From a virus (lineage: Duplodnaviria; Caudoviricetes): a stretch of 64,000 bases of DNA. The notes under the pieces were generated by a model. That model had not been told where the DNA came from. It was given only the letters and a program-made list of their open reading frames with translations, and did no database searches. Each line of letters starts with the position of its first letter. Position 1 is the stretch's first letter. A program made the position numbers and the translations under genes. Shown here in pieces: positions 5,345 to 56,960 of the stretch. The stretch lies in the IMG/VR virus record IMGVR_UViG_3300020450_001133; one strand, written 5' to 3'.

Positions 5345-5352
5345 TATAAATA
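5345..5352 (+). promoter_or_regulatory. T4-like late promoter TATAAATA
   Basis: Exact TATAAATA 8 nt before ATG 5361, just after a terminator. Confidence 0.75.
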
Positions 5353-13279: not shown

Positions 13280-13308
13280 ATTATATGGGATATATGTGTA
13301 TTTGTCAA
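13280..13308 (-). promoter_or_regulatory. sigma70 promoter, leaderless
   Basis: TTGACA-17nt-TATAAT, 6 nt from ATG 13273. Confidence 0.9.
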
Positions 13309-15564: not shown

Positions 15565-15828
15565 TTAGCACCCAGTATCGTTTGGGTCAAATCCTAAGTC
15601 TTCATCAGATGTTTCACAACTGTTACAACATTCATCAGTACCACACTTGTCATGCAATACGCCATCTTCATCGTAACCATGTTCGTCAACCTTCTTTTTG
15701 GAACTGGATAGATCCTCGCCATAACGTCCACGGTCTCTGTTACCATCGCCGTTTAGTTCTGTTGCATCTTGTTGAACTTCCTTAAAATCCTTTTTAAGTT
15801 GTACTTTCTTTACTTGCACCTTCGTCAC
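15565..15828 (-). CDS. Hypothetical acidic Cys-containing protein (GTG start 15828)
   Basis: SD AGGAG before GTG; C-terminal [13 protein letters not shown]. Confidence 0.6.
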
Positions 15829-16414
15829 TCCTTTTCTCAATGATTTCGTCAGCAAGACCAAACTCTAGTGCTTCTTCGCTAGTCATAAAGTTATCTCTAT
15901 CCATAGCAGTTTCAAATTCTTCGTAAGTTTTGCCTTTACTGTTGTGCTTGACATATATCTCTGTCAACTCTGTTTTAATTCTTTCTAATTCCTTAGCACG
16001 AATTATAACATCACTAGCCTGACCGTTTGCACCACCTAATGGTTGATGTATCATAGTCCTGCTTTTAGGCAATAAAAATCTTTTACCTTCAGTACCTGCT
16101 TGTGCAAGTAGGCTTCCCATTGAAGCCGCTTGTCCCATTACAATAGTAGAAATATCTGGTTGTATATACTGCATGGTATCATACATTGCCATTCCACTTG
16201 TAACTGCACCACCAGGTGAGTTAATATAAAAACTTATATCAGCAGTTGGGTCTTCTGCTTCTAAGAAAAGTAGTTGAGCACAGATACTGTTTGATACTGA
16301 GTCCGTTACTTCTCCATTCAAGAATACAATTCTTTCTTTAAGCAGTCTACTGTAGATATCATAACTACGTTCTCCTGCTGACGTCTTTTCTATTACATAT
16401 GGTACAAAATTCAT
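15794..16414 (-). CDS. clpP: ATP-dependent Clp protease proteolytic subunit
   Basis: [30 protein letters not shown] (catalytic Ser), MIHQP (His), DRD. Confidence 0.98.
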
Positions 16415-16442: not shown

Positions 16443-16826
16443 TTAATTTGCTAATTGCTTTATGCGGTTTAGGAAACTTGTAACGCCTTTTAATCGTTGG
16501 TATGATATAATATTCGTATTGAGAAAAGGATACTTTTCTAAAGTAACATTTTTAATATCTTCACGTGAAGATAATTGCGAACATATAACTGTTAGTAATC
16601 CTTTTACAAAAGCACTACTACTATCAAAGATTAACTGGTCACCTTCTAATACAACCCAAACATTACTGGTACAACCATATACTTTGTTGTCTTCTGTTTG
16701 AATTTCTCTGACATGCTCACGGTCTGCTAGTTCCATAACAGTCTCGTAAAAGTCAGCCGGTGATAATTCGTTTAAGTAATCTATTTCCATTGTCATTATT
16801 ATATTGCCTTTTACTGCAAATGTCAA
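16443..16826 (-). CDS. sufE: SufE-family sulfur acceptor
   Basis: [11 protein letters not shown] (acceptor Cys), [10 protein letters not shown], final SYQRLKG pattern; start uncertain. Confidence 0.8.
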
Positions 16827-19764: not shown

Positions 19765-19792
19765 ATTATAACAAATTTAAATCATTTGTCAA
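19765..19792 (-). promoter_or_regulatory. sigma70 promoter, leaderless
   Basis: TTGACA-16nt-TATAAT, 6 nt from ATG 19758. Confidence 0.85.
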
Positions 19793-20539: not shown

Positions 20540-21499
20540 TTATAAACTCCTGTCTAATGTCTCTAACAAATTAAACCTATCATTAAAAATTGGATGATTT
20601 AAGTTGTAAGGGTTAAATCTTTTAAAAGTTGTACTTGCTATTCTATTTGCAACAAGTGTAATTTTTTTATTAACTTTTAAATCCGTAATACTATTTATAT
20701 ATAATTCAACAGTATTTTTATCTAATCTTGGTAAAGATAGCAGTTCAAAAAGGGCAATATCGAACTCTAAGTAACTCATTCCTAGTTGGTCTGCATCACT
20801 ATTTGATATGCCTAAACCGTCAGTTGGAACTGCTTCTACCGTTGCTTGTGGTACATCTAACATCTTTGCTAACATAGGAACTTCCCAACTTTTGTTTAAA
20901 GATTGGATAGGTGCAATATCACCTACGTCACCATGTAGTGTCCAAAACCCTGCGGCTAGTTCACTAAAGTTATCAGTACTACCAACACACCCTGCAACTT
21001 TATGTGCAAGGTTATACAAAGTAATCATTCTAAGTCTTGCTCTGATGTTACCTTGTCTTTGTTGTACACGATATGTACCTGCTTCTAATTCATCTTTATC
21101 TATAATAAACTGTTGCATACTGTCAAACTGTTCACTTAAATCGTAACTATGTGATTCTAATCCAAGTGCTTCTATGTTTTCCAGTCCTCTGTCAGTTTCT
21201 TCTTGATTTTGATGTATAGGCATTGTTACACCATGTACTGTCCAGCCTGCTTCTTTAAACAAAGCGGCAGTTAAGGCACTATCAACGCCTCCACTCATTC
21301 CAACAACAACATCTTCAATTTGATGTTTGTCAGAGTATGCAGATAAATCATCTACTATGCTTTGCTTGATTGCGGCTAGTTCGCCTTCATTTGGATAAAG
21401 ACCATTGTTAATATGTGTTTCCAGTTTGTCTAAAAACCAACTATCAACATCTTCTTCCATCCCTGGAGTAATGTCTAATATTTTATCCTTCATGTTCAC
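20540..21499 (-). CDS. nadE: NH3-dependent NAD+ synthetase
   Basis: VVGMSGGVDSAL, NIRARLRMITLY, STDNFSE, GDIAPIQSL motifs. Confidence 0.9.
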   Translation of the reverse strand: MNMKDKILDITPGMEEDVDSWFLDKLETHINNGLYPNEGELAAIKQSIVDDLSAYSDKHQIEDVVVGMSGGVDSALTAALFKEAGWTVHGVTMPIHQNQEETDRGLENIEALGLESHSYDLSEQFDSMQQFIIDKDELEAGTYRVQQRQGNIRARLRMITLYNLAHKVAGCVGSTDNFSELAAGFWTLHGDVGDIAPIQSLNKSWEVPMLAKMLDVPQATVEAVPTDGLGISNSDADQLGMSYLEFDIALFELLSLPRLDKNTVELYINSITDLKVNKKITLVANRIASTTFKRFNPYNLNHPIFNDRFNLLETLDRSL

Positions 21500-23670: not shown

Positions 23671-24729
23671 CTATTCGGAAACTTGATAACCTTCATATAC
23701 AGGGTTATAAGTTTTTCCACCATTAACTTGTACAAAGGTTGTGCATTTAGACAAGTTTTTCAACTTATCAGCACCAACATAAGTACAAGCAGAACGCAAC
23801 CCTCCCAAAATATCGGTGACCACATCATTAACGGTCCCTTTGTAAGGAATGCGTACAACTCTTCCTTCGCTCGTTCTATGTTCTTGAACTCCACCTGATT
23901 CCTCCTGTGCTACTGTGGTACTGCTACCAAAAAATTCAACTGTACCACCATCACGGACTTCATGTCCGATTCCTTCTTTTGTTCCTGCCATCATGCCACC
24001 TAGCATTACGAAGTCAGCACCGGCACCAAATGCCTTTGCTACATCACCAGGGCTAGTACAACCACCGTCAGCAATGATATGACCGCCAAGTCCATGAGCC
24101 GCGTCAGCACACTCCATGACAGCGGAGAGTTGAGGATATCCGACTCCAGTTTTAATACGAGTAGTACAAACACTACCAGGCCCAATACCAACTTTAACAA
24201 TGTCTGCTCCTTTTAGTAATAGTTCTTCTGTTATATCAGCAGTTACAACATTACCTGCAATAATAACTATGTTAGGATACTTCTCTCTAAAACGTGCTAC
24301 ATAGTCTAAAAAACGTTCACTATAACCATTAGCAACATCTAAACAAACATAGTCTATACTTCTTGACAGTTTAAGTGTAGCATCAATTCTTTCAATGTCT
24401 ACATCTGTTATACCTGTTGTTACTGCTATGTTTCTACATAAGTCAGGCTTATGTACATGATTGTTAATCCAATCCCAAATGTCTGCAGGTTGATAGTTTT
24501 TATCTAAACATGTAAACATTGGTACTTTAATAAGTTCTTCTGCCATTCTAAATGTGCCAACACCTTGCATGTTAGCCGCCATAATAGGAATGCCATCATA
24601 TGTTCTGCCACTGTTTAAGAACTTATATTGTCTTTTAAGTTCGACATTCTTTCTACTTCCTAATCTACTTCTCTTAGGACGTAATAGTACATCTGAATAA
24701 TCTAATTTAATATCTCTTTCTATCTGCAT
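23671..24729 (-). CDS. guaC: GMP reductase
   Basis: [56 protein letters not shown]. Confidence 0.95.
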
Positions 24730-27388: not shown

Positions 27389-27417
27389 ATTATACGTTAT
27401 TTTTTAACTGATGTCAA
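27389..27417 (-). promoter_or_regulatory. sigma70 promoter, leaderless
   Basis: TTGACA-17nt-TATAAT, 6 nt from ATG 27382. Confidence 0.9.
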
Positions 27418-36813: not shown

Positions 36814-36842
36814 ATTTTACCGGATTTATTGATTAATGTCAA
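36814..36842 (-). promoter_or_regulatory. sigma70 promoter
   Basis: TTGACA-17nt-TAAAAT. Confidence 0.8.
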
Positions 36843-36854
36843 GAAAAAATCTAT

Positions 36855-36883
36855 AAAAAAATGCCCGACCGAAGCCGGGCATT
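36855..36883 (-). terminator. Rho-independent terminator with cUUCGg loop
   Basis: AATGCCCGGC-TTCG-GTCGGGCATT-TTTTT. Confidence 0.9.
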
Positions 36884-36897
36884 GAGTTGGTTTGTTC

Positions 36898-37137
36898 TTA
36901 TCGGATGTCTGATTGAATTTGTTTACCATTTGCTTTTTCAAATGCATCTGCTAAAACATCAAACATCGCATAATGTTTTTGGTTGTTTGCAGGATTGCCA
37001 TCTGTGTCACGAGGACCAACATCCATGTAAACATCAGCATCAACAAAGTTCCAGTTGACGTGTCCATTAGACTGAATGTTTTCAGGATTAGTTACAGCCT
37101 TGTTAAAAGACCTTGCCATTTTTACATCTACGTTCAT
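36898..37137 (-). CDS. Hypothetical phage protein
   Basis: 79 aa; NWNFVDADVYMD. Confidence 0.7.
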   Translation of the reverse strand: MNVDVKMARSFNKAVTNPENIQSNGHVNWNFVDADVYMDVGPRDTDGNPANNQKHYAMFDVLADAFEKANGKQIQSDIR

Positions 37138-37658
37138 TAAGCCACCTCTAGTGATTGTTCAACATAATTTTTTACTTGGTCAGTGATATCTTCAAATCCA
37201 AAACTAGCAACAATATGGAATGTACCGTTGTCAACGTCTTGAACAATATCACCAACACTCAAAGAGTGCATGTCACGGAAAGTTACAACTTCACCGTCTT
37301 TGCGAGTAACAGTTTTCATTTTGTAATCGCTTACATGAGCATCGAACACAGGATCTGTTTCAGTGTCCTCATCATAGTATCTACCGTTAAGAACAGCAAA
37401 CACATCTTCCAAATCACGTACCTGCCAACTATCACCGGAACCATCAACAAGACCTGCGTCTTTCTTTACAGAAGCAACATGGGTAAAATGTTGAAAGTCA
37501 GTATCTTTGAATTTGATTTCATCACGGAAACTGTGACGCAATCTCATGTATGCTTCGTAGATTGGGTATTTTTCTTCAGCACCAACATGTCCTCTATCGT
37601 TGCTATTCACAAAGTTGTGGACTTCTTTGTTGATTTTGATTTGAAATACTTTATACAT
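37137..37658 (-). CDS. Hypothetical protein with YodL-like C-terminal motif
   Basis: HSLSVGDIV; SD AAGGAG. Confidence 0.6.
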   Translation of the reverse strand: MYKVFQIKINKEVHNFVNSNDRGHVGAEEKYPIYEAYMRLRHSFRDEIKFKDTDFQHFTHVASVKKDAGLVDGSGDSWQVRDLEDVFAVLNGRYYDEDTETDPVFDAHVSDYKMKTVTRKDGEVVTFRDMHSLSVGDIVQDVDNGTFHIVASFGFEDITDQVKNYVEQSLEVA

Positions 37659-37689: not shown

Positions 37690-37717
37690 ATTATACGTCT
37701 TTTAGGAGTAAAGTCAA
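37690..37717 (-). promoter_or_regulatory. sigma70 promoter
   Basis: AAAAAGG-TTGACT-16nt-TATAAT. Confidence 0.8.
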
Positions 37718-37744: not shown

Positions 37745-38131
37745 TTAGAAGAAATATCTGAAGAATTGCCCTAAAAGTGCTGAACCAAGGGCAAATACAA
37801 TGATTGCATTAAGGATAATTAGGGCTCTATCCTTCCACATTAGTCCAACCCATGTCCAACCCAAACAACCTATCAAACTGAGGATTCTGTCTGCTGTCTG
37901 AAATGTTTCTCCGTCTTGGGCTCTCATCATTACAGCCAATAAAATGAACATACTGGCTGTCCACTTTACATACCAACTTAGGTCACCTTTGGGTGTAGCA
38001 CTTTTTACAATACGTTTAGAATGTTGTATTTCACCTATGCTATACTCTTCCCCTTTATCTGTTACAATTACAGTATCAGGAGATGGTGTTGGGTCTGCTT
38101 CTTTTATAGTAAATTCTTTTTTAATACTCAT
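37745..38131 (-). CDS. Membrane protein, hypothetical
   Basis: Three TM segments after SWYVKW. Confidence 0.7.
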   Translation of the reverse strand: MSIKKEFTIKEADPTPSPDTVIVTDKGEEYSIGEIQHSKRIVKSATPKGDLSWYVKWTASMFILLAVMMRAQDGETFQTADRILSLIGCLGWTWVGLMWKDRALIILNAIIVFALGSALLGQFFRYFF

Positions 38132-38598
38132 AACAGTCCTAATTGATATTTTCCTTCATCGCTTACCATGGTATGTGGATTCCACGGTGGGTCAAATGTT
38201 AAAACTACATTAACCTTATTTACACACTCAACTGCTCTAGTGGCAAATTCTATTTCCATTGGTATGATTTCTGCCGCAGGACAATTTGGTGTAGTTAATG
38301 TAAATATGATTTGTGCATCGTACTCTTTATTTACTGCAACTTCATAAATTAAACCTAAATCATACACGTTTAAGTTCAATTCAGGATCGTACACTTTACG
38401 CAAATTTGCTATTATTTGTTCTACCAATTGATCCTGTAAATTTTCTGGGGGCTTAGGCATACTTGCTTTTTCTTCTGCCGTTGGAAGTGTTCTTGATTCA
38501 TAATCTCTACCTTGCAAGGTAGAATTTTCTTGGTCTAACTCTTCAAGTCTTGGATCAGGTTCTTTACCTACAGTTTCATCTTTTCTATCGCCTGCCAT
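38128..38598 (-). CDS. sufT: SufT / DUF59 Fe-S assembly protein
   Basis: LRKVYDPEL.LNVYDLGLIY, TLTTPNCP, LTFDPPW. Confidence 0.9.
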   Translation of the reverse strand: MAGDRKDETVGKEPDPRLEELDQENSTLQGRDYESRTLPTAEEKASMPKPPENLQDQLVEQIIANLRKVYDPELNLNVYDLGLIYEVAVNKEYDAQIIFTLTTPNCPAAEIIPMEIEFATRAVECVNKVNVVLTFDPPWNPHTMVSDEGKYQLGLL

Positions 38599-39782
38599 AG
38601 TCCCTCAACTAATTTTACGCAATCATGTTCATCATTATATGGTGCTGAACTAACTCGTAAAATTCCTTCATTATTTGTGTATCTGTAACTTGCCGGATAG
38701 GCACACATATGACCCGTCCTTACACAAACATTTTGCATGTCTAAAAATCCTGCTAAATCACTTGGACTTGTTCCTTTTACTTTAAAACTATAAACACTAT
38801 TTGGTTTAATAGGTCCAATAAGTTCCATTTGTTCTATTTCAAATAGACCTTTGTCTTTTAACATATTAAAAAATTCTTTTTCACATTCATGAATTTCATT
38901 GTATGTGATATCTTGTATCCATTTTGCCGCCGCACCTAAACTATGAACTCCTGCTACATTAGGAGTTCCGGCTTCCATTCTTTCAGGTCCTCTTTTCAAA
39001 GTGAATGTATCAAAATCGCATTGTGTGATTGTTCCGCCACCTAACCAAGTTTGTACATCATCAAATCCGCCTTTATGATATAAAACTCCTGTGCCTGTAC
39101 TTGCATACATTTTATGTCCACTAAATGCCATCCAATCTATATCATTCTTTTTAACATCAATTGGTCTATGTCCTATACTTTGACAAGCATCTATTACAAC
39201 TTCACAGTCATGTTCTTTTGCAATCATTATCATTTGTTGCCAAGGAAGTTCTTGTCCTGTAAAATTACTTTGTGTTAAGAAACTGCAAACACTTCCTGGA
39301 TTGTCTTTTACTGTTTCATACCAAGCATTTACGTCTACATTACCTTCATCGTTACTAGGAACTATTACTAACTGCCCATTTGCTTTTGTTCTACCTTGTT
39401 GCATCCAAGGTAAAATGTTACTGTGATGTTCTACCTCAGTCATAATTACTGTTGGTTCTAACGGAGTCCAATCTGCAATTATGTTTAAACTTGCAGTTGT
39501 TCCATTTGTAAAAACAATCTCATGTGGTTCAGCATTTATAAGTTTTGCAACTTCTACTCTTGCTTCGTCATACTTGTCACTTGCAATGGTACTAGTCTTA
39601 AAGTCTCCCCTATGAACATTTGCTCTGTAATTATAATGATAATCACTAACCGCTTTGATTGAACTATCAACAGTTTGACTACTTGCGGCATTGTCCAAGT
39701 ATGTCAAATCGCTATATGCTAAACTAGGAAAACAATTCCTAATCTGTTTGATATCTTTTGCTTTTTTATAAACTTTTAACAT
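38568..39782 (-). CDS. sufS: SufS-type cysteine desulfurase
   Basis: YLDNAASSQ, EHHSN, DACQS, FSGHKM (PLP Lys), EAGTPN, RTGHMCA (group II catalytic Cys). Confidence 0.93.
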   Translation of the reverse strand: MLKVYKKAKDIKQIRNCFPSLAYSDLTYLDNAASSQTVDSSIKAVSDYHYNYRANVHRGDFKTSTIASDKYDEARVEVAKLINAEPHEIVFTNGTTASLNIIADWTPLEPTVIMTEVEHHSNILPWMQQGRTKANGQLVIVPSNDEGNVDVNAWYETVKDNPGSVCSFLTQSNFTGQELPWQQMIMIAKEHDCEVVIDACQSIGHRPIDVKKNDIDWMAFSGHKMYASTGTGVLYHKGGFDDVQTWLGGGTITQCDFDTFTLKRGPERMEAGTPNVAGVHSLGAAAKWIQDITYNEIHECEKEFFNMLKDKGLFEIEQMELIGPIKPNSVYSFKVKGTSPSDLAGFLDMQNVCVRTGHMCAYPASYRYTNNEGILRVSSAPYNDEHDCVKLVEGLWQAIEKMKL

Positions 39783-41086
39783 AAAAAACTACTTACTAAT
39801 ACGTCCTCGGCTATGTCTTTTGCTAGTCCTCGGCTCTGCAAATAATATAATTTGCTTTTATCTATATTACTTATGGTACAACCATGAGTACATTCAATTT
39901 CTTTGGTATGTATATCTAGTATGGGTCTGGAGTGCATTTTTGTATTTGGAGTCAACATTAAATTTTCGTTTTTCATATGACCATCAAATCCTACACTATT
40001 AGGACTTACATCAAATCTGCCTATAAAACTTGTACTAGCATTTTCATTTCCAACGTTCTTAATATCAATTATACTTTTGTTATCTGAACTTCTACTGTCA
40101 ACATGCACAAACTGATGATATTCATGTCCTTTGTAGATGTTGTTTCTACCATTAAGTGTTAAATCTACATTTGTGGTTAAGTCAAAATAAAAGTTTTCTT
40201 GATAGTAGTCTGATCCTGTGTTTTTAAAATTTACAGTTATCTTACTGTTAGGGTGGCAAATAAATTTGCTATCAAATACACCGAAGCCTCCATAATCGTT
40301 TGTAATTCTATCTATAACCAGTTCACTGTTTTCTCTAACAATGTAGATTATATTGTTCATTTGTCCAGATTGTAATTTTACATTCTCTTTTAAATGAACT
40401 TTTGTTTTGTGTTGTACATCTATAATGTTTGTATTGCATTCTAAAATACCTTTAGAATTCTTATTTAGATATTGAATACTAATTGGATTCTTCATAAAGT
40501 TTCCATTAGCACCAGATGGAACAATCACAGTATTTAAAAAAGGTGAGAATGCGTATGTAAAATTAGAAAAGTTTTCTGTCCTTCTTATTAGTTTTACATA
40601 TTCATCTTGCTTGTTCCTGTTTACTTTTATTTGGTCTAAAATTTGTAATTGGAAAGGTTTCTTAACTCCTAAGTCGTTGCTAGGATAAAGTATTCCGTCA
40701 TTAAACAATAATGTATTCTTTTTAAATGCTACTTGTTCAAATGGTTCTAGGTCTGCAAGATAATTTTTTTCATTGGGCTCACTTGACCAAAGTATTTCTT
40801 TATTGTAAAGTTTGTGTAAGTTTGCAAAGTTGAATTGTTCAGATTTACTATCAGGCAAGCCTATTTTACTAATGTATTCTACATTATTGTTATAGCCGTT
40901 ATAAAAATTATTTAATTTATGTTTAAGATGATGAAAGTCTCTTGTTTTTGTATTCTCACCTATAACATAATCATAAAGGTCTTTGATAGTGTAATAACTA
41001 TCAAACTCATTTGTAGGTTCTAATGTTTCTCTGTAGAATAAATTTTTATACACTTTCAAACCCTTGACTAAATATTTTGTTTGCAA
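39776..41086 (-). CDS. sufD: SufD (divergent N-terminus)
   Basis: C-terminal SRPILDIHTKEIECTHGCTI..ID...LYYLQSRGL; start uncertain. Confidence 0.85.
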   Translation of the reverse strand: MQTKYLVKGLKVYKNLFYRETLEPTNEFDSYYTIKDLYDYVIGENTKTRDFHHLKHKLNNFYNGYNNNVEYISKIGLPDSKSEQFNFANLHKLYNKEILWSSEPNEKNYLADLEPFEQVAFKKNTLLFNDGILYPSNDLGVKKPFQLQILDQIKVNRNKQDEYVKLIRRTENFSNFTYAFSPFLNTVIVPSGANGNFMKNPISIQYLNKNSKGILECNTNIIDVQHKTKVHLKENVKLQSGQMNNIIYIVRENSELVIDRITNDYGGFGVFDSKFICHPNSKITVNFKNTGSDYYQENFYFDLTTNVDLTLNGRNNIYKGHEYHQFVHVDSRSSDNKSIIDIKNVGNENASTSFIGRFDVSPNSVGFDGHMKNENLMLTPNTKMHSRPILDIHTKEIECTHGCTISNIDKSKLYYLQSRGLAKDIAEDVLVSSFLC

Positions 41087-41741
41087 GTTCTATATCGCCT
41101 GATAGAACTCCATCCTTCTTCAATACTAATACTTTGTCTGGGTTTAACCCTTCAACTAATTTTTGATAATGTGTAACAACAATCAAAGTGTTATTATCAT
41201 TACGCCATTCATTGAGTTGTTCTATTAATGCTTTTATTCCATCTACATCTAATCCACTGTCTGGTTCATCAAGCATTGCCAATTTGGTATTAAGCATACT
41301 CATTTGTATGAGTTCATTTTTCTTTTTCTCACCACCACTGGCGTCTGTGTTAAGGTTTCGTTTATCCCAATTATCAGGCAAGTTAAGTTTTGCACTTACT
41401 TCTTTAAAATTTCTTAATGTTTCTGCTATATCTTTTCCTGATATATTTAATGCCTGTTTCATAAACTGAAAGTTACTTAAACCAGGTACACTTGTTGGTG
41501 CTTGGAAACCTACAAACATTCCTAGTCTTGCTCTTTCATCTGTTTCTAACTCTGTAAGGTCACTACCCATAAAAGTCATTTCGCCAGATACATTAAGGTC
41601 AGGTCTTCCCATGATGCCATGTAATAGGGTGCTTTTACCTACACCATTACTTCCCATCACCACATAAGTTTTGCCAATGTCGAAAGTCGTACTGACATTG
41701 TCAAGTATATGTTCTACAGAAAAATCTTTTAATTTTAACAT
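41046..41741 (-). CDS. sufC: SufC ABC ATPase
   Basis: GSNGVGKS, GMFVGFQ.P, SGGEKKKNE, LDEPDSGLD, VTHYQKL. Confidence 0.95.
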   Translation of the reverse strand: MLKLKDFSVEHILDNVSTTFDIGKTYVVMGSNGVGKSTLLHGIMGRPDLNVSGEMTFMGSDLTELETDERARLGMFVGFQAPTSVPGLSNFQFMKQALNISGKDIAETLRNFKEVSAKLNLPDNWDKRNLNTDASGGEKKKNELIQMSMLNTKLAMLDEPDSGLDVDGIKALIEQLNEWRNDNNTLIVVTHYQKLVEGLNPDKVLVLKKDGVLSGDIELANKIFSQGFESV

Positions 41742-41747
41742 GCCGAT

Positions 41748-41776
41748 ATTATACTACCTTTTAGGTATTAAGTCAA
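41748..41776 (-). promoter_or_regulatory. Internal sigma70 promoter, leaderless, for sufC-D-S-T
   Basis: TTGACT-17nt-TATAAT, 6 nt from the sufC ATG. Confidence 0.85.
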
Positions 41777-41778
41777 TA

Positions 41779-43236
41779 TTATCCAACTGCCCCTTCCAGT
41801 TGTACAGCCAACAATTGATTGGCTTCTGCGGCAAACTCTAATGGTAGTTTTTGGAATACGTCTTTACAAAATCCATTCACTACCAAATTCATTGCATCAT
41901 CTTCACTGAATCCTCTAGTTGCAAGATAATACATTTGTTCTTCACTAATTTTTCCAGCACTTGCTTCATGCTCTATCATAGCACTATCATTTTGGCTAGT
42001 TACATAAGGAATTGTTAATGCTCTACTATCTTGTAACATTAAACTATCACACTTTGTATAGTTAGACGCATTTTTGGCTCCTGGATTAACTTTTACTGAA
42101 CCTCTATATGTATTTGTGCTGTCTCCAAAACTTATACCTTTGGATATAATGGTACTTTTGGTATTCTTACCTAAGTGTATCATTTTTGTTCCTGTGTCTG
42201 CTTGTTGTTTGCCTTTTGTTACTGCAACACTAAAGAACTCTCCAATACTACCTTCACCTTTTAAAATGCAACTTGGATATTTCCAAGTTACTGCTGAACC
42301 TGTTTCTACTTGGGTCCAACTAACTTTACTATTTTTGCCTTCGCACTTTGCACGTTTTGTTACAAAGTTATAAACACCACCTACTCCATCTTCATTACCT
42401 GGATACCAATTTTGTACTGTGGAGTATTTTATTTCTGCATTGTCTTTAGTAATTAATTCTACACAGGCGGCATGTAATGTATTCTCATCATATGCTGGTG
42501 CAGTACAACCTTCTAAGTAACTTACATAACTATCTTCGTCTGCTATTATTAATGTGCGTTCAAACTGACCTGTGTTTCTTGCATTTATTCTAAAGTATGT
42601 GTTTAGTTCCATAGGACATGAAACACCTTTAGGGATATACACAAAAGTACCGTCTGTGAATACAGCAGAGTTCAGTGTAGCAAAGTAATTGTCTGTGTAA
42701 GGTATCACACTACCTAAGTATTCTTTAACTAGTTCTTCGTGGTCTTTTACTGCTTCACTAATACTGCAAAATACAATGCCATGCTTCTTTAATTCTGCTT
42801 GGAATGTTGTAGCAACACTAACACTATCAAAGACAGCATCAACGGCTACTGTTGGTATAAGATTTTCTTTTTTTGGTTTTTCTGTATCAAGTCCTAGTAA
42901 GGCATCACGTTCATGCAAAGGAACACCTAACTTTTCAAATGTATCTAAAATCTCTTGTGGTATTTCGTCTTTGTTTCTAGTCTTAGGTGCTGAGTAATAA
43001 CTTAATGCTTGGTAGTCAACAGGGTCATAATCAAGTTCACTCCAATTGGGCTCACTCATCTGCTCCCATCTTTTGAATGCTTTTAGTCTAAATTCAAGTA
43101 ACCATTCTGGCTCATCTTTGAGCATACTGATATTTTTAATAATATCTTCATTCAAACCCGTGGGGAATGTTTCGTTTTCTAAATCAGTTACGAATCCTTC
43201 TTTGTAATATTTGTCGTTAAAATTATCAATACTCAT
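41779..43236 (-). CDS. sufB: SufB Fe-S scaffold
   Basis: [54 protein letters not shown]. Confidence 0.98.
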
Positions 43237-43538
43237 TATTCCACTTGTTTAACTTTTAATTGTAAAGGATGTCCTTGTCCTCTAGCAACGGTTGTTCCTT
43301 CTGCACATTTCTGTTCTGCAATTTCATAAGAATATGTACCAGCAACTGCTGAACCTGACTCATGAACTTCGAGTGTTACGTCTTTTGCTGACTTAAGATT
43401 CTTGTTAAAGATTTCAACTAACAGTTTGATTACAAATTCTACTGGAGTAAAATCGTCATTAAAAATTATAACATCATACCTTGGTGGGTATTTTAATGCT
43501 ACATTAGTTCTTGTCTTTTGTTCAACTTGTTCTGTCAT
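43236..43538 (-). CDS. clpS: ClpS adaptor
   Basis: [37 protein letters not shown]. Confidence 0.95.
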
Positions 43539-43539
43539 A

Positions 43540-43743
43540 TTATTTACTATGTGGTGGTAATTTTGCCTCTACAAACATTTCATGTTTTCGTTTAACCGGA
43601 TTATACTTTCTTAATTTTAACTTCTGATTTTCAATTGTCAACCTTTTTGTTTTCAAAGCGGTGTAATGATATGTGTGACTATCTCTGGTTTCACCTTCCG
43701 GTATTAAATAAACTAAGGTTTTTCTTTTGTCTTTCTTTGCCAT
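43540..43743 (-). CDS. rpmG: Ribosomal protein bL33 (Cys-free type)
   Basis: KLKLRKYNPVKRKHEMFVEAK; basic, 67 aa. Confidence 0.8.
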   Translation of the reverse strand: MAKKDKRKTLVYLIPEGETRDSHTYHYTALKTKRLTIENQKLKLRKYNPVKRKHEMFVEAKLPPHSK

Positions 43744-43752
43744 AATAATAAA

Positions 43753-43776
43753 GGGTAGCAGAAAATACTGCTACCC
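43753..43776 (-). terminator. Hairpin / possible terminator after hsp20
   Basis: GGGTAGCAG-6nt-CTGCTACCC, short U tract. Confidence 0.65.
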
Positions 43777-43794
43777 ACATATTTACCGCAAAGT

Positions 43795-44235
43795 TTATGA
43801 TATTTTTATCTTTTGTGGTTTCATAGCATCAGGTACGTTCCTGAACAATGAAACTCTTAAAATACCATCTTCTAGTTTTGCTGATTTTACTTCTACAAAC
43901 TCTGCTAGTTTGAATGTTCTAGTAAAGTTTCTTTCAGCAATACCTTTATGAAGATACTCAATTTCATCTGAATCTAATACAGCAGATGTACCTGATATTT
44001 TTAAAGTACCATCTTCTATTTCAATTTCGATGTCATCTTTCTTAAAACCTGCAACGGCTAAAGTTATTTCATATATGTCATCTTTGCCTTTGCTGATATT
44101 AAAGGGTGGATACCCTGTTGCGTTATTTGTGAAAGTAGGGTCGTTAAAGAATTGCTCTGCAAGTCTATCAAAGCCTACGGACATTTTATATAGTGGGGAT
44201 AGTGATTCGGTTGTGAATCGGATTTGCTTATTCAT
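43795..44235 (-). CDS. Small heat-shock protein Hsp20 (IbpA-like)
   Basis: GYPPFNI, LAVAGFKKDDIEI, YLHKGIAERNF.R.F.L, LEDGIL. Confidence 0.96.
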   Translation of the reverse strand: MNKQIRFTTESLSPLYKMSVGFDRLAEQFFNDPTFTNNATGYPPFNISKGKDDIYEITLAVAGFKKDDIEIEIEDGTLKISGTSAVLDSDEIEYLHKGIAERNFTRTFKLAEFVEVKSAKLEDGILRVSLFRNVPDAMKPQKIKIS

Positions 44236-44263
44236 ATTAATCTCCTATATTTAGCAAGTTAAT
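44236..44263 (-). promoter_or_regulatory. ROSE-like RNA thermometer hairpin
   Basis: AUUAA-CUU-G-CU-AAAUAU-AG-GAG-A-UUAAU-AUG: UUGCU pairs with the SD AGGAG leaving a bulged G. Confidence 0.7.
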
Positions 44264-44613
44264 CTATTCCAACTTTTAAAACCCTAATGGCGAATTAAAA
44301 GTTCGCGTGTGAGGTCGTTTCTGTTAGTATGTGTCTGTATCTCCTCACGACACTTGTCCATCTTCTTGGTTTCTTTTGATGTTACCATCTCCAGTCCTTT
44401 GTTGGTGGACCCAATCATGTATATACTTCTTAGTCTGTTACCATTCGGTTTATTTCACTTACGATCCTTAAACCTTGTGTATCTTCCCAGTTGTTTATAC
44501 AAGGCATTTCTGGTTGTCCTAGTTGTACAGTAGACATTAGTCTCTTACGATTCCAATGCCCTTGCACTTCTTTGTCCTTCCTTAAAATGCAAAGATATTT
44601 ATAATCTATATGT

Positions 44614-47314: not shown

Positions 47315-47690
47315 TGAATACTAATTTAATATTCCTGTCTTTGCAGATTTGCTTACCAGTGAATTGTTTATCTTTGTATTCAACTCCTAACACTCTAACA
47401 TTTATAGGAAGTGTTAAAAGTAAATCCTCTAAATCTTGCTCTGTTGCGTAACATACTATTTCATCTACATATTTTACAGCCGCCAACTGTATTTGTCTTT
47501 CTACTAAACTTTGTACTGGCGGATTTTTACTGTCTGGTCTGTCTATTGTAGGATCAGTTTGCAATCCTACTATCAAAAAATCACAATGTCTTTTTGCTTC
47601 TTCAAGCATTGTGATATGACCTGCATGTAACAAATCGAATGTACTACAAGTAAATCCTATTTTGCCACAATCTTTATAACTGAGTCTCAT
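47244..47690 (-). CDS. Cytidylyltransferase, glycerol-3-phosphate CTase-like
   Basis: STFDLLHAGH (HxGH), LIVGLQTDP, ER..QL.AVKYVDE, R.HSFSST.LR. Confidence 0.9.
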   Translation of the reverse strand: MRLSYKDCGKIGFTCSTFDLLHAGHITMLEEAKRHCDFLIVGLQTDPTIDRPDSKNPPVQSLVERQIQLAAVKYVDEIVCYATEQDLEDLLLTLPINVRVLGVEYKDKQFTGKQICKDRNIKLVFNGRDHSFSSTSLRQRVAEHENSS

Positions 47691-48127
47691 GCAAAGTCCT
47701 TTAACATTTTTTTGATTTCTAATGCGTGTTGTTCTTCTTGTCCAATTTGTCCTCTAGCATATTCTTCTAAATACACACTGGCACCTTCTACTTCAGAAAG
47801 TAGTTCTTTATATAAATTAACTGCATGAGTTTCATGTTCTAAACTTTCTTGTAATATTTGAACAATGCTATGGTCATGTGATTCCACAATTGGTGCTATA
47901 ACTTGACTAGGATGTCCGTCTAAGCCTGTAATTAATTCTCCGGCTTGTAAGGCATGTTGTAAACTTTCATTTGCTTGTTCTTGCAAAAATGTTACAATAG
48001 GAATCCTGTAAGGTCCAGTAATCATTAACGAACTATGTGCGTATCTGACAACTCCAGCCATTTCATATTCCACTATTGAATTAAGTATCTCACATACTTT
48101 ACTTTGGTTTAATTCTTTCAATTCCAT
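47687..48127 (-). CDS. Bacterioferritin/ferritin-like protein
   Basis: E(MAGVVRY)...ESLQH...EHE...EEQH di-iron pattern. Confidence 0.8.
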   Translation of the reverse strand: MELKELNQSKVCEILNSIVEYEMAGVVRYAHSSLMITGPYRIPIVTFLQEQANESLQHALQAGELITGLDGHPSQVIAPIVESHDHSIVQILQESLEHETHAVNLYKELLSEVEGASVYLEEYARGQIGQEEQHALEIKKMLKDFA

Positions 48128-48897
48128 TATTCTCCGTTATAATAATGAAGACGTTCTATATCATCTTCACTGGTCTCATCACCATATTGTATTTCAATAA
48201 TGTGACATGGTTTATCATTTCTATTAACAATTTGATGCCAATCATTTGCTTTCACATGAAAATTATCATCTTGTTTAAGAGTTACATTTGTAAAGTTGTC
48301 TGGATTACTAGCACTATACTTTACTTCGCATTCTCCTTTACTGACAAACCATATTTCACTTCTTTTAAAGTGACGTTGATAACTGATACCTTTCCCTGGT
48401 TCAATTATCAACTCCTTAACTTTTACTACTTCATCTTGGAACAAATCACTAAATTCGCCCCAAACCCTTCTAGTAGTTGGATATTGCCATTCCTTTAGTA
48501 TCCAACTGCTACTGTTTGATTTATTGGAACCTCCAACACCAAACACAAATTCAACGCCTTCAACAATCATTTCTGGAATGTTATCTTTTGTTCTATCACC
48601 TCCGTTGCAAAAGATAATTTCTGCATGTTCATATGCCTTCTTGGCATTTTCCAGAGCCTCAACTGCTGAGCCGTCTTTATCATCGAAACCCCAAACATTG
48701 TCTACCATGTCCATTGTTTCTAGAATTCTTGCCCTCTCTTCGAAAGGCATAAAGGGCCTGCCTTTTTTTCTTGTGAGCCACTCATCGCTATTAAGTGCTA
48801 CAACTAGTTTGTCTCCTAATTGTTTTGCTCCTTCTAAGTAGTCTATATGTCCAGAATGCAGTGGATCAAATCCACCTGATACGACTACTACTTTCAT
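48127..48897 (-). CDS. Cytidylyltransferase fused to a cupin (mannose-6-P isomerase type C-terminus)
   Basis: SGGFDPLHSGH, NSDEWL.RKKG, NGGDR; C-terminal RVWG...ISYQRHFKRSEIW...WHQI.N. Confidence 0.88.
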   Translation of the reverse strand: MKVVVVSGGFDPLHSGHIDYLEGAKQLGDKLVVALNSDEWLTRKKGRPFMPFEERARILETMDMVDNVWGFDDKDGSAVEALENAKKAYEHAEIIFCNGGDRTKDNIPEMIVEGVEFVFGVGGSNKSNSSSWILKEWQYPTTRRVWGEFSDLFQDEVVKVKELIIEPGKGISYQRHFKRSEIWFVSKGECEVKYSASNPDNFTNVTLKQDDNFHVKANDWHQIVNRNDKPCHIIEIQYGDETSEDDIERLHYYNGE

Positions 48898-49325
48898 TAG
48901 AAGTTACCACGACTTCTCTGCATAGCGGCTATCCTTTCGTTGTATTCTCTTACTCGCCTTGTTTTACGTTTGGACTTCATCCATTTTTGACCAGTGGGCA
49001 TGTATTGTTTAAAATCGCCTCTTGCTTCGGCTTCTCTAACATACTTGTCCCATCTCTTTTTGGCTTGTTTCTTTTTACGATTTCTTTTTGCACTAGGCTT
49101 TTCGTAATATTGTTGCTTTGCTAATTCCTTTTGGAATTCTGCTTTTTCTAATCTCTTTTTCAAAACTCTTAATGCCTTATTCACGTCGTTGTTTCGAACT
49201 TCAATAGAACTATTGAATTTGTCCAGATAATGTTTATCTTTCTTAGGTTGTTCTTTCCTTTTATTGGAGTTCCAACCTTGCGTTATCTTTCTACTTTGCT
49301 GTCTGCCTTGCGATTTATTACTCAA
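48897..49325 (-). CDS. rpsU: Ribosomal protein bS21 with N- and C-terminal extensions
   Basis: Core IEVRNNDVNKALRVLKKR......KEL....YYEKPSAKR.RKK..A.KR. Confidence 0.85.
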   Translation of the reverse strand: MSNKSQGRQQSRKITQGWNSNKRKEQPKKDKHYLDKFNSSIEVRNNDVNKALRVLKKRLEKAEFQKELAKQQYYEKPSAKRNRKKKQAKKRWDKYVREAEARGDFKQYMPTGQKWMKSKRKTRRVREYNERIAAMQRSRGNF

Positions 49326-50590
49326 CTTTTACCTCTAATTTTTATTTTATAATCTTTATCCGATTTTTCATTACCGTTAGTATAAACGAAAACAGGGTAA
49401 GTGTCAACATCTTTTGTTGGATATTTGTTGAATCTCACCGTTTTGACCCCATTTTCTTTTAGTTTAGGTGCTCTGTACATAATGTTGTGTAAACTGTTTT
49501 CTACTATGGATTTTAATCCTCTAGCACCAGTTTTTGTTTTACTAGCCAGTTTTGATATATCATCTATGTACTCATCATTAAACTCTAATTCTATATCATC
49601 AAACTCTAAAAGTTTTTTAACTTGTGGAATAACACTTGCTTTTGATGATTTTAAAATTGTTTTCATATCGGATTGTGATAATGGTTCTAAAGGTACAATG
49701 TTTGGTAATCTACCAACAAGTTCTGGAATGAGACCATAACTGATTAAATCGTCATGCTCTACTTTGTGTTGCCAATTGTCTTTTTTGGTTGTTGATTTTA
49801 ATTGTTTGTTGAATCCTATGTTCTTTTTGTTTGCCTTAGTGTTTATTTGTTTTTCTAAACCTACAAATGCACCACTACATATAAACAATACATTTGTTGT
49901 ATCAAACTCTACATATTGGTCCATACGTTTTGAACCGTTAGAAGATACTTTAACTACTGTACCTTCAATTAATCTTAGGAGTGCTTGTTGTACACCTTGT
50001 CCACTAATGTCCTTTGTGCCGGTGTTAGACTCGCCCTTACGAGCCTTTTTATCTATTTCATCTATGAATACAATACCTTTTTGTGCTAGTTCTAAGTTCC
50101 AATCGCACATATTAAGTAAACGTTCAAGCATACTTTCAACATCTTCCCCAACATAACCTGCTTCTGTTAATGTTGTAGCATCAGCAATAGCAAAAGGTAC
50201 ACTTAATTTATCTGCAAGTGTCTTTGCTAATAAAGTTTTACCTGTTCCTGTATTACCCAATATAATAATGTTACTTTTTTCTATATCAGTTTCACTATCA
50301 TTGTAAATTGTTTTGTAATGATTGTATGCACATACAGATAATATTTCTTTTGCATACTCTTGGCTAATTACATATTCATCAAGATGTGCTTTGATTTCTT
50401 CTGGAGTTGGGATATCTTCGAAGGATAAGTCTTCTAATGTATCTTCTTCATTGATAATTTTATGACTGATGTTAATACATTCGTTACAGATGTAAGAATT
50501 AGGACCTGCTATTAACTTTTTTACTTCAGTTCGCTTTTTACCACAAAAACTACAACTTAGATTTTGTTCGTTGTCTCTATCACCGGGCAT
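49322..50590 (-). CDS. clpX: ClpX unfoldase
   Basis: CSFCGK...ICNEC zinc domain, GNTGTGKT, GYVGEDVE, IDEIDK, IGF loop, GARGL. Confidence 0.97.
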   Translation of the reverse strand: MPGDRDNEQNLSCSFCGKKRTEVKKLIAGPNSYICNECINISHKIINEEDTLEDLSFEDIPTPEEIKAHLDEYVISQEYAKEILSVCAYNHYKTIYNDSETDIEKSNIIILGNTGTGKTLLAKTLADKLSVPFAIADATTLTEAGYVGEDVESMLERLLNMCDWNLELAQKGIVFIDEIDKKARKGESNTGTKDISGQGVQQALLRLIEGTVVKVSSNGSKRMDQYVEFDTTNVLFICSGAFVGLEKQINTKANKKNIGFNKQLKSTTKKDNWQHKVEHDDLISYGLIPELVGRLPNIVPLEPLSQSDMKTILKSSKASVIPQVKKLLEFDDIELEFNDEYIDDISKLASKTKTGARGLKSIVENSLHNIMYRAPKLKENGVKTVRFNKYPTKDVDTYPVFVYTNGNEKSDKDYKIKIRGKS

Positions 50591-52930: not shown

Positions 52931-53404
52931 TTAAACGATTTTTTGATGGTCGTTACGTTCTACAGTTGCAGAGTTATGTTCATGTTCTCTGACTGTAACT
53001 TCTTGTACCCAACATCTGCCATCAGTTAAATCATCAACCAAGTCTTGTGCAAAGTCAAATACCTGTTCAGCAAAACGTTCGCAACCAACTGCTGGAACAA
53101 GTCTCATGTCAATAAGATTCTTTTCTTGTAACATTTTAATTGTTTCCAACTCTGGATCATCTTCTGCAACTAGATATGTGTGGTCAAACATATATTTTAA
53201 CCATTCTTTGAGTGGCTTTAATCCACCAAAGTCTACTATCCAATTTCTTTCATCTAATTCACCACCGAACTTCAATTCAAATTGTAGTGCATATCCGTGA
53301 ATTAAATTGCAATGGCTATCTGCTCGCCATTGTCTAAAGGCGCAACTGTGTCCTGTTGCATGACTATAAGTCTTTCCACTGTAAAATCTTTTCTTTACTG
53401 CCAT
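52931..53404 (-). CDS. queD: 6-carboxytetrahydropterin synthase (QueD/PTPS)
   Basis: GHSCAFRQW...SHCNLIHGY, WIVDFGGLK, FDHT, GCERFAE, VREH..N.A. Confidence 0.9.
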   Translation of the reverse strand: MAVKKRFYSGKTYSHATGHSCAFRQWRADSHCNLIHGYALQFELKFGGELDERNWIVDFGGLKPLKEWLKYMFDHTYLVAEDDPELETIKMLQEKNLIDMRLVPAVGCERFAEQVFDFAQDLVDDLTDGRCWVQEVTVREHEHNSATVERNDHQKIV

Positions 53405-55313: not shown

Positions 55314-55667
55314 TTAATCGATTTGTTTGGCTGGTATTCTACTCACTTTACTCCAATTTTCATCGTCAGTATAACTAGCCGCCTCTTCGTATGTGGGTAA
55401 TGGATCTTTTACTTTTGTGATTACGGGCCAAGTTTTGCTCATTTCTGTATTAAAATCTAGCCACTGTTGGTCTGATTCTGTTTCAAGTTTTCTATCTGAC
55501 ACAATGGCGTTGACTGGGCATTCAGGTTCACAGATAGCACAATCGATACAAACTTCAGGGTCTATAACTACTGTATTCTCTCCTTCATGAAAACAATCAA
55601 CAGGGCATACTTGAACGCAGGTTGTATGTTTACAATCTACGCATTCACCCTTTACAACATAAGTCAA
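55314..55667 (-). CDS. fdxA: 7Fe/8Fe ferredoxin (FdxA-like)
   Basis: CVDCKHTTCVQVCPVDCF and CIDCAICEPECPV; TTG start, SD GAGGAG, late promoter 55691-55696. Confidence 0.93.
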   Translation of the reverse strand: MTYVVKGECVDCKHTTCVQVCPVDCFHEGENTVVIDPEVCIDCAICEPECPVNAIVSDRKLETESDQQWLDFNTEMSKTWPVITKVKDPLPTYEEAASYTDDENWSKVSRIPAKQID

Positions 55668-55869: not shown

Positions 55870-56925
55870 TTATGTGTTTAGATATTGCAGGTATAGTTGT
55901 TCACTAGCAAGGTTTTTAGCCTTTGCTTCGCATTGAATGTCAAAATTATCAAAGAAACTCAGTGCCCATTCATTAACTTTTTCGTTAGGGTAAAAATCTG
56001 AGTGTGCTCTAAGTTTTTGTTTTTTGCAACCTAAATCCAGTAAGGTTGAAAAGTCATGCATTGTTGTATGTCTACTTCCTGATTCAAACAAGGATGGTTC
56101 AGGTAACCATTCATCCCTGCTATAACTATAATGTAGAGTAGGCCTAACACCACGCCAACTATCAATGACCCTTTTAACACGGTCGTCATCCGCTTGTATA
56201 TATTCTTCATCTCTAATCCAATGGTGATGTATGTCCAACACCAGTGCTAAATGTTTCTCCAATTTTAATGATTCATCAAGTCCGTGACACATTTCATCAT
56301 TCTCGATTGCAATAGTGTTACGAGCCTCGGGTGATAACTTAGGTAGTATATTTATAATACCTTCTGCTCCTTGGCGTCCAGATATGTGTATATTGAGTTT
56401 CATATCCATAAACTCTTGTCCATATCCCATCCAACGTGCCATGCTGGCATGATATTCGAATTCGTCTATACTACGTTCTACTACATCAGGCTTATCACTA
56501 GCAAGGACACAAAACTGCCCAGGATGAAAACTAATACGCACATCCAAATCTTTTGCAAGTTGTCCAACCTTGGCAAATCCATCTTCGAGTATTCGTTGAT
56601 TGTCAGCATCATCCCAAAGATAACGCCAAGTAGGCTCAGTAGCCATAGGTATTTGATTACTTCCAAGTCTTACCATCCTCCGTTCTGCTGGTAAAGTTGT
56701 ACCTACCCATTCAACAAGATTGTAGGCACTTTGCATATTGTGAGTGACCAAATCCAGCATTCTTTCTTCAGCCACATGTTTTTCCTGTCTGTTACACCAT
56801 GCAACTGTTGTAACTTTCTCAGTATAATTTTGTTGTATTTCTTTTAGTATCTTGGGTTTTTGACTCTGGTCAGGATCAAGATACTTACAACAAAAACCAA
56901 TTCTCTTTACAGTAGAATCAAACAT
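55870..56925 (-). CDS. uvdE: UV-damage endonuclease (UvdE/UVDE)
   Basis: IGFCCK, RLGS, SFHPGQF, IENDE, LDIHHH, RPTLHYS, AHSD, EAKAK. Confidence 0.92.
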   Translation of the reverse strand: MFDSTVKRIGFCCKYLDPDQSQKPKILKEIQQNYTEKVTTVAWCNRQEKHVAEERMLDLVTHNMQSAYNLVEWVGTTLPAERRMVRLGSNQIPMATEPTWRYLWDDADNQRILEDGFAKVGQLAKDLDVRISFHPGQFCVLASDKPDVVERSIDEFEYHASMARWMGYGQEFMDMKLNIHISGRQGAEGIINILPKLSPEARNTIAIENDEMCHGLDESLKLEKHLALVLDIHHHWIRDEEYIQADDDRVKRVIDSWRGVRPTLHYSYSRDEWLPEPSLFESGSRHTTMHDFSTLLDLGCKKQKLRAHSDFYPNEKVNEWALSFFDNFDIQCEAKAKNLASEQLYLQYLNT

Positions 56926-56931
56926 GCTGAT

Positions 56932-56960
56932 ATTATATTATATAAAGTAGTCAATGTCAA
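56932..56960 (-). promoter_or_regulatory. sigma70 promoter, leaderless
   Basis: TTGACA-17nt-TATAAT, 6 nt from ATG 56925. Confidence 0.9.

Follow-up and report, generated by a model that had tools for sequence, protein, structure and literature searches.

The window analysed here, a stretch of 64,000 nucleotides (nt) filed as IMG/VR virus record IMGVR_UViG_3300020450_001133, carries sufB, sufC, sufD, sufS and a DUF59 gene of the SufT type as one tightly packed minus-strand block (38128-43236), and a sufE gene elsewhere. These genes encode the scaffold, ATPase, cysteine desulfurase, sulfur acceptor and SufT components of the SUF machinery that assembles iron-sulfur (Fe-S) clusters. Judged by sequence, this near-complete phage SUF set is real, widespread and mechanistically conventional, and it is apparently undescribed in the literature available to us. 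We consider it probable that the genes constitute a working, virus-encoded SUF assembly system of old phage lineage that is likely to supply the phage's own Fe-S enzymes.

Every long open reading frame (ORF) between 36.8 and 44.3 kb lies on the minus strand. A preliminary description of this DNA, made from its letters alone, had proposed a contiguous sufB-sufC-sufD-sufS-sufT order with catalytic residues present, and this is borne out by ORF coordinates, profile searches and alignments to solved structures (Table 1). SufB aligns to E. coli SufB (5AWF chain A) with 636 bits and has the YLEGC, KCDS and EHEA motifs. The SUFBD core with its sulfur-tunnel and cluster residues is intact: the equivalents of E. 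coli R226, N228, C254, Q285, W287, K303, C405 and E432-H433-E434 are retained and are invariant in 27 homologues. SufC, with ~39% identity to bacterial SufC, has the Walker A, Q-loop, signature, Walker B and H-loop elements of an ABC ATPase; the Walker A, signature, Walker B and H-loop align to those of E. coli SufC. The CTHG motif of the full-length SufD corresponds to E. coli C358 and H360, and its histidine (H401) is invariant in 20 homologues; the sufD start is uncertain, with the TTG at 41086 overlapping sufC by 41 nt. In SufS, the GHK lysine for pyridoxal phosphate (PLP) and the catalytic cysteine of the RTGHMCA motif (RTGHxC) both align, and the best solved relatives are SufS, CsdB and CsdA. 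The SufT-like protein matches TM0487 with 73.6 bits and has the TTPxCP cysteine. Its first ~40 codons are a strain-variable extension, with an alternative start at ATG 38460 and proteins of 118 amino acids (aa) in relatives; a related strain, seen in a metatranscriptome contig, lacks 117 nt at window positions 38448-38566 (the end of sufS and the start of sufT), and the N-terminal extension of the window SufT is therefore an indel-variable segment. SufE, placed at 16443 in the preliminary description, is confirmed there by its profile match and by an active-site cysteine that aligns to E. coli C51, and it was found in all five relatives searched. Its gene lies 22 kb from the suf block, directly upstream of ClpP, and its start needs correction, probably to the ATG at 16796 or 16790, since the gene's own promoter has its -35 box at the TTG at 16826. 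These matches and alignments assign SufB, SufC, SufD, SufS, SufT and SufE to their families, with catalytic residues intact.

A fold prediction of the SufBC2D complex had been suggested, and was run as the SufB-SufD pair. The two phage proteins are predicted to pair at the canonical interface, with a score of 0.78 against 0.01 for the best control, a mark that 58 of 80 solved complexes and 2 of 110 mismatched pairs reached. Agreement between runs is at least 97% of contacts, with partner pLDDT (predicted local distance difference test) values of at least 82. The predicted interface joins SufB 398-429 to SufD 375-407, the strands that hold the SufB Cys/EHE and SufD Cys/His ligands. Because the E. 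coli SufBC2D complex (5AWF) has been solved, this result documents likeness to a known complex rather than binding of these particular copies.

The DNA originates from an uncultured marine giant T4-type phage with a genome of about 320-340 kb. Related SufBs are present on 56 viral contigs in IMG/VR, and in ~20 independent contigs (72-98% SufB identity) the suf genes are flanked by the same genes in the order Hsp20-bL33-ClpS-sufB-C-D-S-T(-DUF6552), with a ferritin-like gene and ClpX upstream of the block, as in the window. The suf genes, SufE and the T4 Gp23 major capsid gene occur together on one 340-kb contig of a relative (91% complete by CheckV estimate). The window itself holds a T4-type clamp-loader gene and PHROG families common to phiCbK-like jumbo phages. 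By these hallmarks and by synteny, the suf genes are an auxiliary metabolic gene (AMG) cluster located on a bona fide phage genome; statements about the genome as a whole are drawn from the related contigs and not from the window's own whole genome. In a big protein database, over 120 clusters match at 82-100% identity; their sources are marine samples of Tara, ENA and JGI, with contigs of 316-340 kb. The window stretch is present in runs of nine studies, and an independent DNA run covers 33.0-48.5 kb with 0-2 differences, its contigs spanning sufB/ClpS and DUF6552/sufT/sufS/sufD. No isolate phage relative was found when the suf region was compared by megablast with 50,697 phage records. The earlier statement that the flanks are phage genes with phage promoters agrees with this synteny and with the conserved sigma70-like promoters described below.

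The phylogenies place these genes in an old phage-specific SUF lineage, vertically inherited in marine T4-type jumbo phages. In an IQ-TREE analysis (LG+C20+F+G4; root not inferred) that set 22 representative viral SufBs against 36 bacteria from more than 10 phyla, the viral sequences fall on one side of a branch with support of 100/99, present in 100% of bootstrap trees. A FastTree of all 133 sequences agrees, as do the SufC and SufS trees; the cellular SufB sample consisted of the 80 most similar of at least 600 matches, and long branches can attract. Of the two outcomes envisaged in the preliminary description, a phage-specific clade and a recent capture, the trees thus give the former. Three viral contigs (L031, L038 and L039) nest among bacteria and represent either separate acquisitions or contamination. 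With each bacterial species represented by one genome, cellular SufBs reach 64% identity at best, and matches are spread over many phyla with no clear donor. Median identities between the window and bacteria, and between bacteria, are 62% and 73% for SufB, 39% and 62% for SufC, 22% and 35% for SufD, 32% and 50% for SufS, and 35% and 44% for SufT. The long branch is therefore a property of the whole system, beyond SufD alone, and its most anomalous member is SufC. The earlier remark that SufD has diverged far more than SufB holds but is nothing special, SufD always being the less conserved paralogue; what is unusual is that SufC and SufS, too, lie well beyond the bacterial range. The phage copies also differ deeply among themselves, with SufB identities of 60-98% and SufC identities down to 34%. 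Purifying selection is evident within the phages: pairwise comparison with two relatives, at unsaturated synonymous divergence (dS 0.28-0.91), gave ratios of nonsynonymous to synonymous substitution rates (dN/dS) of 0.04-0.10 per suf gene (sufB 0.045-0.049, sufC 0.06, sufD 0.08-0.09, sufS 0.04-0.10), far from the value near 1 by which the preliminary description would have recognized relaxed selection.

Transcription signals within the block are also of phage type. The ClpS stop codon overlaps the sufB start codon (TAATG), and the junctions from sufC to the DUF6552 gene overlap or abut. A single gap remains, the 37 nt that separate sufB from sufC; it contains a sigma70-like promoter, and the sufC ATG follows the end of the -10 box by 6 nt. 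In 11 relatives the promoter hexamers are invariant and the spacer is variable, including relatives in which 300-500 nt are inserted between sufB and the sufC promoter (L006:11458-11959, L007, L012:11452-11749), a pattern that constitutes a classic promoter footprint in the alignments. A strict motif, TTGAC-N-TAnAAT, occurs 11 times in the window with 0.41 expected, nearly always on the coding strand; a generic promoter scan was barely above chance (54 found, 41 expected), and only the strict motif and its conservation are informative. Seven of the strict promoters are followed by the ATG of a long ORF at a distance of exactly 6-7 nt from the end of the -10 box, and sufE shares this layout, its second in-frame ATG lying 7 nt downstream of the -10 box. 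From this spacing, many early mRNAs of the phage are probably leaderless, with the SUF genes probably in the early class, and the conserved promoter suggests early expression of what would be a leaderless sufC-sufD-sufS-sufT-DUF6552 message. A T4 late-promoter motif, TATAAATA, is present at 5345-5352, before the twitch-domain radical SAM gene. With 4 occurrences in the window where 10 were expected, TATAAATA shows no enrichment, and the suf genes are therefore not of the late class by this measure.

Metatranscriptome contigs contain exact pieces (zero differences) of sufS, sufB and ClpS/sufB at low depth, which is weakly compatible with suf transcription, DNA carry-over being possible; in runs X15 and X17 there are gaps over parts of sufC and sufD, and such gaps prove nothing. 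The hsp20 region (43683-44471) has depths of 608x and 479x in two metatranscriptome contig sets, with neighbours at 3-17x. A terminator-like hairpin that could be an attenuator lies between hsp20 and the bL33-like gene, and the fall in RNA depth beyond it, from ~600x to 3-17x, is a weak hint of attenuation.

Three other explanations for a suf block in this DNA were weighed. An assembly artefact, or mis-binned host DNA in which a bacterial suf block is joined to a phage, has a negligible probability. Public 'phage' records do hold contamination. Staphylococcus and Listeria 'phage' fragments carry host SufB, and the record of 'Microcystis phage MaAM05' (L001, MW495066.1 259792-273876) was not used as a phage precedent: its last ~14 kb, in which sufBCDS-iscU lie next to pxpA, panB and panC, look bacterial, and the record may be chimeric. 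Some NCBI SufB copies of the present clade are likewise named 'bacterium' or 'Hellea sp.'. Set against this are the identical flanks in ~20 independent contigs from different samples, the Gp23 capsid gene on the same 340-kb contig as suf, a uniform GC content across the suf region, phage-type promoters inside the suf block and the observation that the SufB of every bacterial species representative is at most 64% identical. The recurrence of one gene order on many independent contigs with phage hallmark genes argues that there is no chimera; this artefact is effectively refuted, and the chimeric host contig that the preliminary description had itself raised is excluded for practical purposes. 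It is also very unlikely that the genes are a recently captured host AMG set that duplicates the host SUF, with no phage-specific history or adaptation. The order sufB-C-D-S-(...)-T is that of most bacterial loci fetched, and single Fe-S genes are well known as marine phage AMGs (PMC5332604, PMC8940887), which favours a capture; the viral clade, however, is supported at 100/99 and nested in no bacterial group, SufB, SufC, SufD and SufS fall below the identities seen between bacterial phyla, and both SufB and SufC are deeply diverged inside the phages.

The remaining alternative is that the machinery has been repurposed, as a maturase dedicated to a single family of phage enzymes (for instance a radical SAM array), for thio-modification of nucleic acids or in a tie with Clp proteolysis. 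We regard this as unlikely, and it has several observations in its favour: the SufC, SufD and SufS branches are unusually long yet under strong purifying selection, ClpS is translationally coupled to sufB and SufE adjoins ClpP, partial systems occur in other phage lineages (SufB alone, mini-SufD, added Grx or FdxA), and SUF parts repeatedly have a DUF6552 membrane protein as neighbour. Every residue for canonical cluster assembly and sulfur transfer is nevertheless retained, the window's clade keeps the full-length canonical set and no thiolation enzyme was seen in the operon. A conventional assembly system that serves the phage's own Fe-S enzymes is the reading that we prefer, and several results weigh against it. 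SufD, SufS, SufT and SufE all score below the curated equivalog cut-offs of NCBI, and the divergence of SufC, SufD and SufS beyond the range between bacteria leaves room for altered specificity or partners. The depth of suf in the RNA contigs is low, and such contigs cannot prove transcription. The link between SUF and radical SAM enzymes is a co-occurrence in few genomes. The A-type carrier SufA is lacking, and IscU/SufU (NifU_N) was not found in the window's clade. For the A-type carrier (PF01521), the search was negative in the 91%-complete 340-kb relative, in a 98%-identical 110-kb contig and among the window ORFs that were scanned; the family is present only in a more distant lineage. The description of the set as near-complete is supported, with the SufBCD scaffold, the SufS-SufE sulfur donor and SufT present. 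The SUF system is not autonomous, as the phage must depend on its host for iron, cysteine, ATP and reductant, and the earlier suggestion that the phage might build Fe-S cofactors independently of its host was overstated for a clade with neither A-type carrier nor IscU/SufU.

By homology with E. coli, SufS with PLP would take sulfur from cysteine and transfer it in persulfide form to the SufE of the phage, which in turn would deliver it to the phage SufB-SufC2-SufD scaffold. Clusters would be built there in an ATP-dependent manner at the interface of the SufB cysteine and the SufD histidine, and SufT may help to hand them to target proteins. The host would contribute iron, cysteine, reductant and the missing A-type carrier, and transcription would proceed from the sigma70-like early promoters. 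With such a system, the phage could make sure that enough capacity for Fe-S assembly is available to its large set of Fe-S enzymes while it infects, in oxic, iron-poor sea water, for which SUF is the pathway that matters, and in a host whose SUF capacity may be limiting or shut down by infection; supply would be matched to demand, with the assembly line made early and many Fe-S enzymes loaded later. Two related phage genomes have 11 and 17 radical SAM matches, to which the window adds its twitch-domain radical SAM gene and its 7Fe ferredoxin, and this radical SAM load is a likely reason for the operon.

Several genes outside the block bear on Fe-S metabolism or are conserved beside it (Table 1). 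The radical SAM enzyme at 5361 was correctly recognized earlier, and it belongs to a twitch-domain family. The 7Fe ferredoxin proposed at 55314 is of the FdxA type. Its casting as the electron donor of the system is less secure: FdxA is itself an Fe-S client, possibly with a reductant role, and, to our knowledge, 7Fe ferredoxins have not been established as electron donors of SUF; the occurrence of FdxA directly beside sufT in other phage lineages does point to some functional link. The gene at 47687, first labelled bacterioferritin-like, encodes a ferritin-like domain of generic kind, with weak matches to small bacterioferritin and Dps-like structures and no match among NCBIfam models, so that the more specific label was dropped. 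In relatives this gene is also near the operon, with 77-96% conservation (dN/dS 0.08-0.15), and its product might have a role in iron storage or detoxification. The bL33-like gene is 73-93% identical in relatives (dN/dS 0.04-0.15), and the window has a second ribosomal protein homologue, an extended bS21 beside ClpX. The adjacency of ClpS and sufB is kept in all syntenic relatives. The DUF6552 gene adjoins SufT in the window, SufE in L028/29 and SufB in L038; because this family, almost wholly viral in the Atlas, is common among viral membrane proteins, its link to SUF is a lead only. The phage has its own ClpS, ClpX and ClpP, and a plant study links the CLP protease to SUFB turnover (bioRxiv 10.1101/2024.11.01.621566). 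Other host-like genes in the window encode a NadE NAD synthase, a GMP reductase, a QueD/PTPS-like enzyme and a UvdE UV endonuclease.

Table 1. Positions of the suf genes, their neighbours and partners, and transcription signals. Positions refer to the window unless a related viral contig (L number) is named.
Feature	Position	Strand	Evidence and remarks
sufB, scaffold subunit	41779-43236	-	NF008773 813 bits, cut-off 717
sufC, ABC-type ATPase	41046-41741	-	TIGR01978 232 bits, cut-off 212.8
sufD, full-length scaffold paralogue, 436 aa	39776-41086	-	PF01458 115 bits; TIGR01981 113 bits, below cut-off 222
sufS, type II cysteine desulfurase	38568-39782	-	PF00266 311 bits; TIGR01979 328 bits, below cut-off 475
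sufT-like DUF59 gene	38128-38598	-	PF01883 56.7 bits
sufE, sulfur acceptor for SufS	16443-16796	-	PF02657 45 bits, cut-off 27; own promoter 16798-16826
hsp20, small heat-shock gene, conserved upstream neighbour	43795-44235	-	PF00011 64.6 bits; syntenic in ~20 viral contigs
bL33-like ribosomal protein gene	43540-43743	-	TIGR01023 29.7 bits, cut-off 23.95
ClpS adaptor gene	43236-43538	-	PF02617 94.5 bits; stop overlaps sufB start (TAATG)
DUF6552, small three-helix membrane protein	37745-38131	-	PF20189 56.8 bits; start overlaps sufT stop
173-aa gene	37137-37658	-	own sigma70-like promoter at 37690-37717; no Pfam family match
ClpP	15794-16414	-	PF00574 260 bits
ClpX	49322-50590	-	
Extended bS21	48897-49325	-	
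FdxA-type (7Fe) ferredoxin	55314-55667	-	DUF3470 and Fer4 domains; NF045490 132.6 bits, just below cut-off 135
Ferritin-like protein	47687-48127	-	PF00210 54.4 bits
Twitch-domain radical SAM enzyme, multi-cluster Fe-S client	5361-6692	+	NF033640 205.5 bits, cut-off 170
Other host-like genes	20540-21499, 23671-24729, 52931-53404, 55870-56925	-	
Sigma70-like promoter of sufC	41748-41776	-	TTGACT-17-TATAAT, in the sufB-sufC gap
Strict promoters	898-926, 13280-13308, 19765-19792, 27389-27417, 36814-36842, 41748-41776, 56932-56960; also 16798-16826	-	
Terminator-like hairpin and T-run, between hsp20 and bL33-like gene	43753-43776	-	possible attenuator
Strong terminator-like hairpin closing the unit	36860-36883	-	10-bp stem with 6 GC pairs, and T-run
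mini-SufD, other viral lineages	L023:12345-12776, L044:12104-12685, L025:11404-11979		
Glutaredoxin gene between sufB and sufC, one lineage	L023:11401-11706		
FdxA beside sufT, other viral lineages	L044:15594-15974, L037:9282-9656		

Other viral lineages in the same SufB clade carry differing subsets of SUF. Some have SufB alone, and others SufB with a mini-SufD of 190 aa and no SufC, the arrangement SufB-Grx-SufC-miniSufD(143 aa)-SufS...SufT in which Grx is a glutaredoxin, the arrangement SufB-C-miniSufD-S...SufT-FdxA, or FdxA-SufT-SufB. The mini-SufDs (143-193 aa; L020-23, L044/45/52 and L025-27) comprise the C-terminal SUFBD core with the histidine only. In three different gene arrangements (L037, L044, L045, L048 and L052), an FdxA-type gene is the immediate neighbour of sufT, the stop codon of one gene overlapping the start codon of the other. 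An apparent intron or insertion in the sufB of L025-27 and L032 was rejected, as the search had merged SufB with the adjacent mini-SufD ORF. A bolder proposal, possible but at present doubtful, is that in marine T4-type jumbo phages an ancient virus-specific SUF lineage coevolved into a modular toolkit, ranging from SufB alone through SufB with mini-SufD to SufBCDSE with SufT, that has phage-only accessories (DUF6552, coupled ClpS, FdxA or Grx) and leaderless early expression, and that would serve the private maturation of phage radical SAM enzymes rather than act as a host booster.

Two SufB proteins of this phage clade (P0091 and P0102) are named '[bacterium]' or 'Hellea sp.' at NCBI, one of them on a contig of 340,258 bp. 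It seems that contigs of jumbo phages have been binned into bacterial metagenome-assembled genomes, and this could also be a weak hint to the host. The public deposition of contigs of this clade as "bacterium" proteins is a practical annotation problem.

The phage set shares with the E. coli-type SUF system (sufABCDSE; 5AWF) the sufB-C-D-S order, SufB, SufC, SufD, a type II SufS and SufE with mapped residues, and a predicted SufB-SufD interface of canonical form. In contrast to the E. coli system, it is encoded by a T4-type jumbo phage, has no SufA, has an unlinked sufE with its own promoter and includes a SufT/DUF59 gene, as do many non-enteric bacteria. It also differs in the ClpS gene coupled upstream, the DUF6552 membrane protein gene downstream, the conserved internal promoter with its predicted leaderless sufC message and the position of every one of its proteins outside the bacterial divergence range. 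Marine phages are known to carry single Fe-S AMGs, namely sufA and other A-type carriers, iscU, sufE and nifU (PMC5332604, PMC8940887), with sufE in the absence of sufS noted explicitly in PMC8940887. These genes likewise derive from cellular Fe-S biogenesis and are thought to boost Fe-S supply in infection; they depend on the host core, whereas the window phage encodes the scaffold, ATPase and desulfurase and lacks the carrier. The reduced systems of archaea (SufB2C2, and SmsBC of SMS) share a beta-helix scaffold of the SufB/SufD family and a SufC-type ATPase, but in the window's lineage SufD has its full 436 aa, sulfur is routed from cysteine through SufSE, and the match to the SmsB model is 166 bits, far below the cut-off of 650. 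No description of a complete phage SUF set was found in the literature searched, an incomplete collection that leaves its absence unproven, and the searched reviews and surveys of jumbo phages make no mention of SUF.

Fe-S cluster biogenesis is counted among the core functions of cells, and phages have been known for single Fe-S helper genes only. The presence of a full scaffold-ATPase-desulfurase set in widespread ocean phages changes this picture, in that a viral assembly line for Fe-S clusters may operate in infected cells ("virocells"). This would bear on iron and sulfur use in iron-poor surface oceans and on how jumbo phages sustain large radical SAM sets. The diverged yet constrained SufC, SufD and SufS proteins would, in addition, be natural variants with which to probe the essential features of the SUF scaffold.

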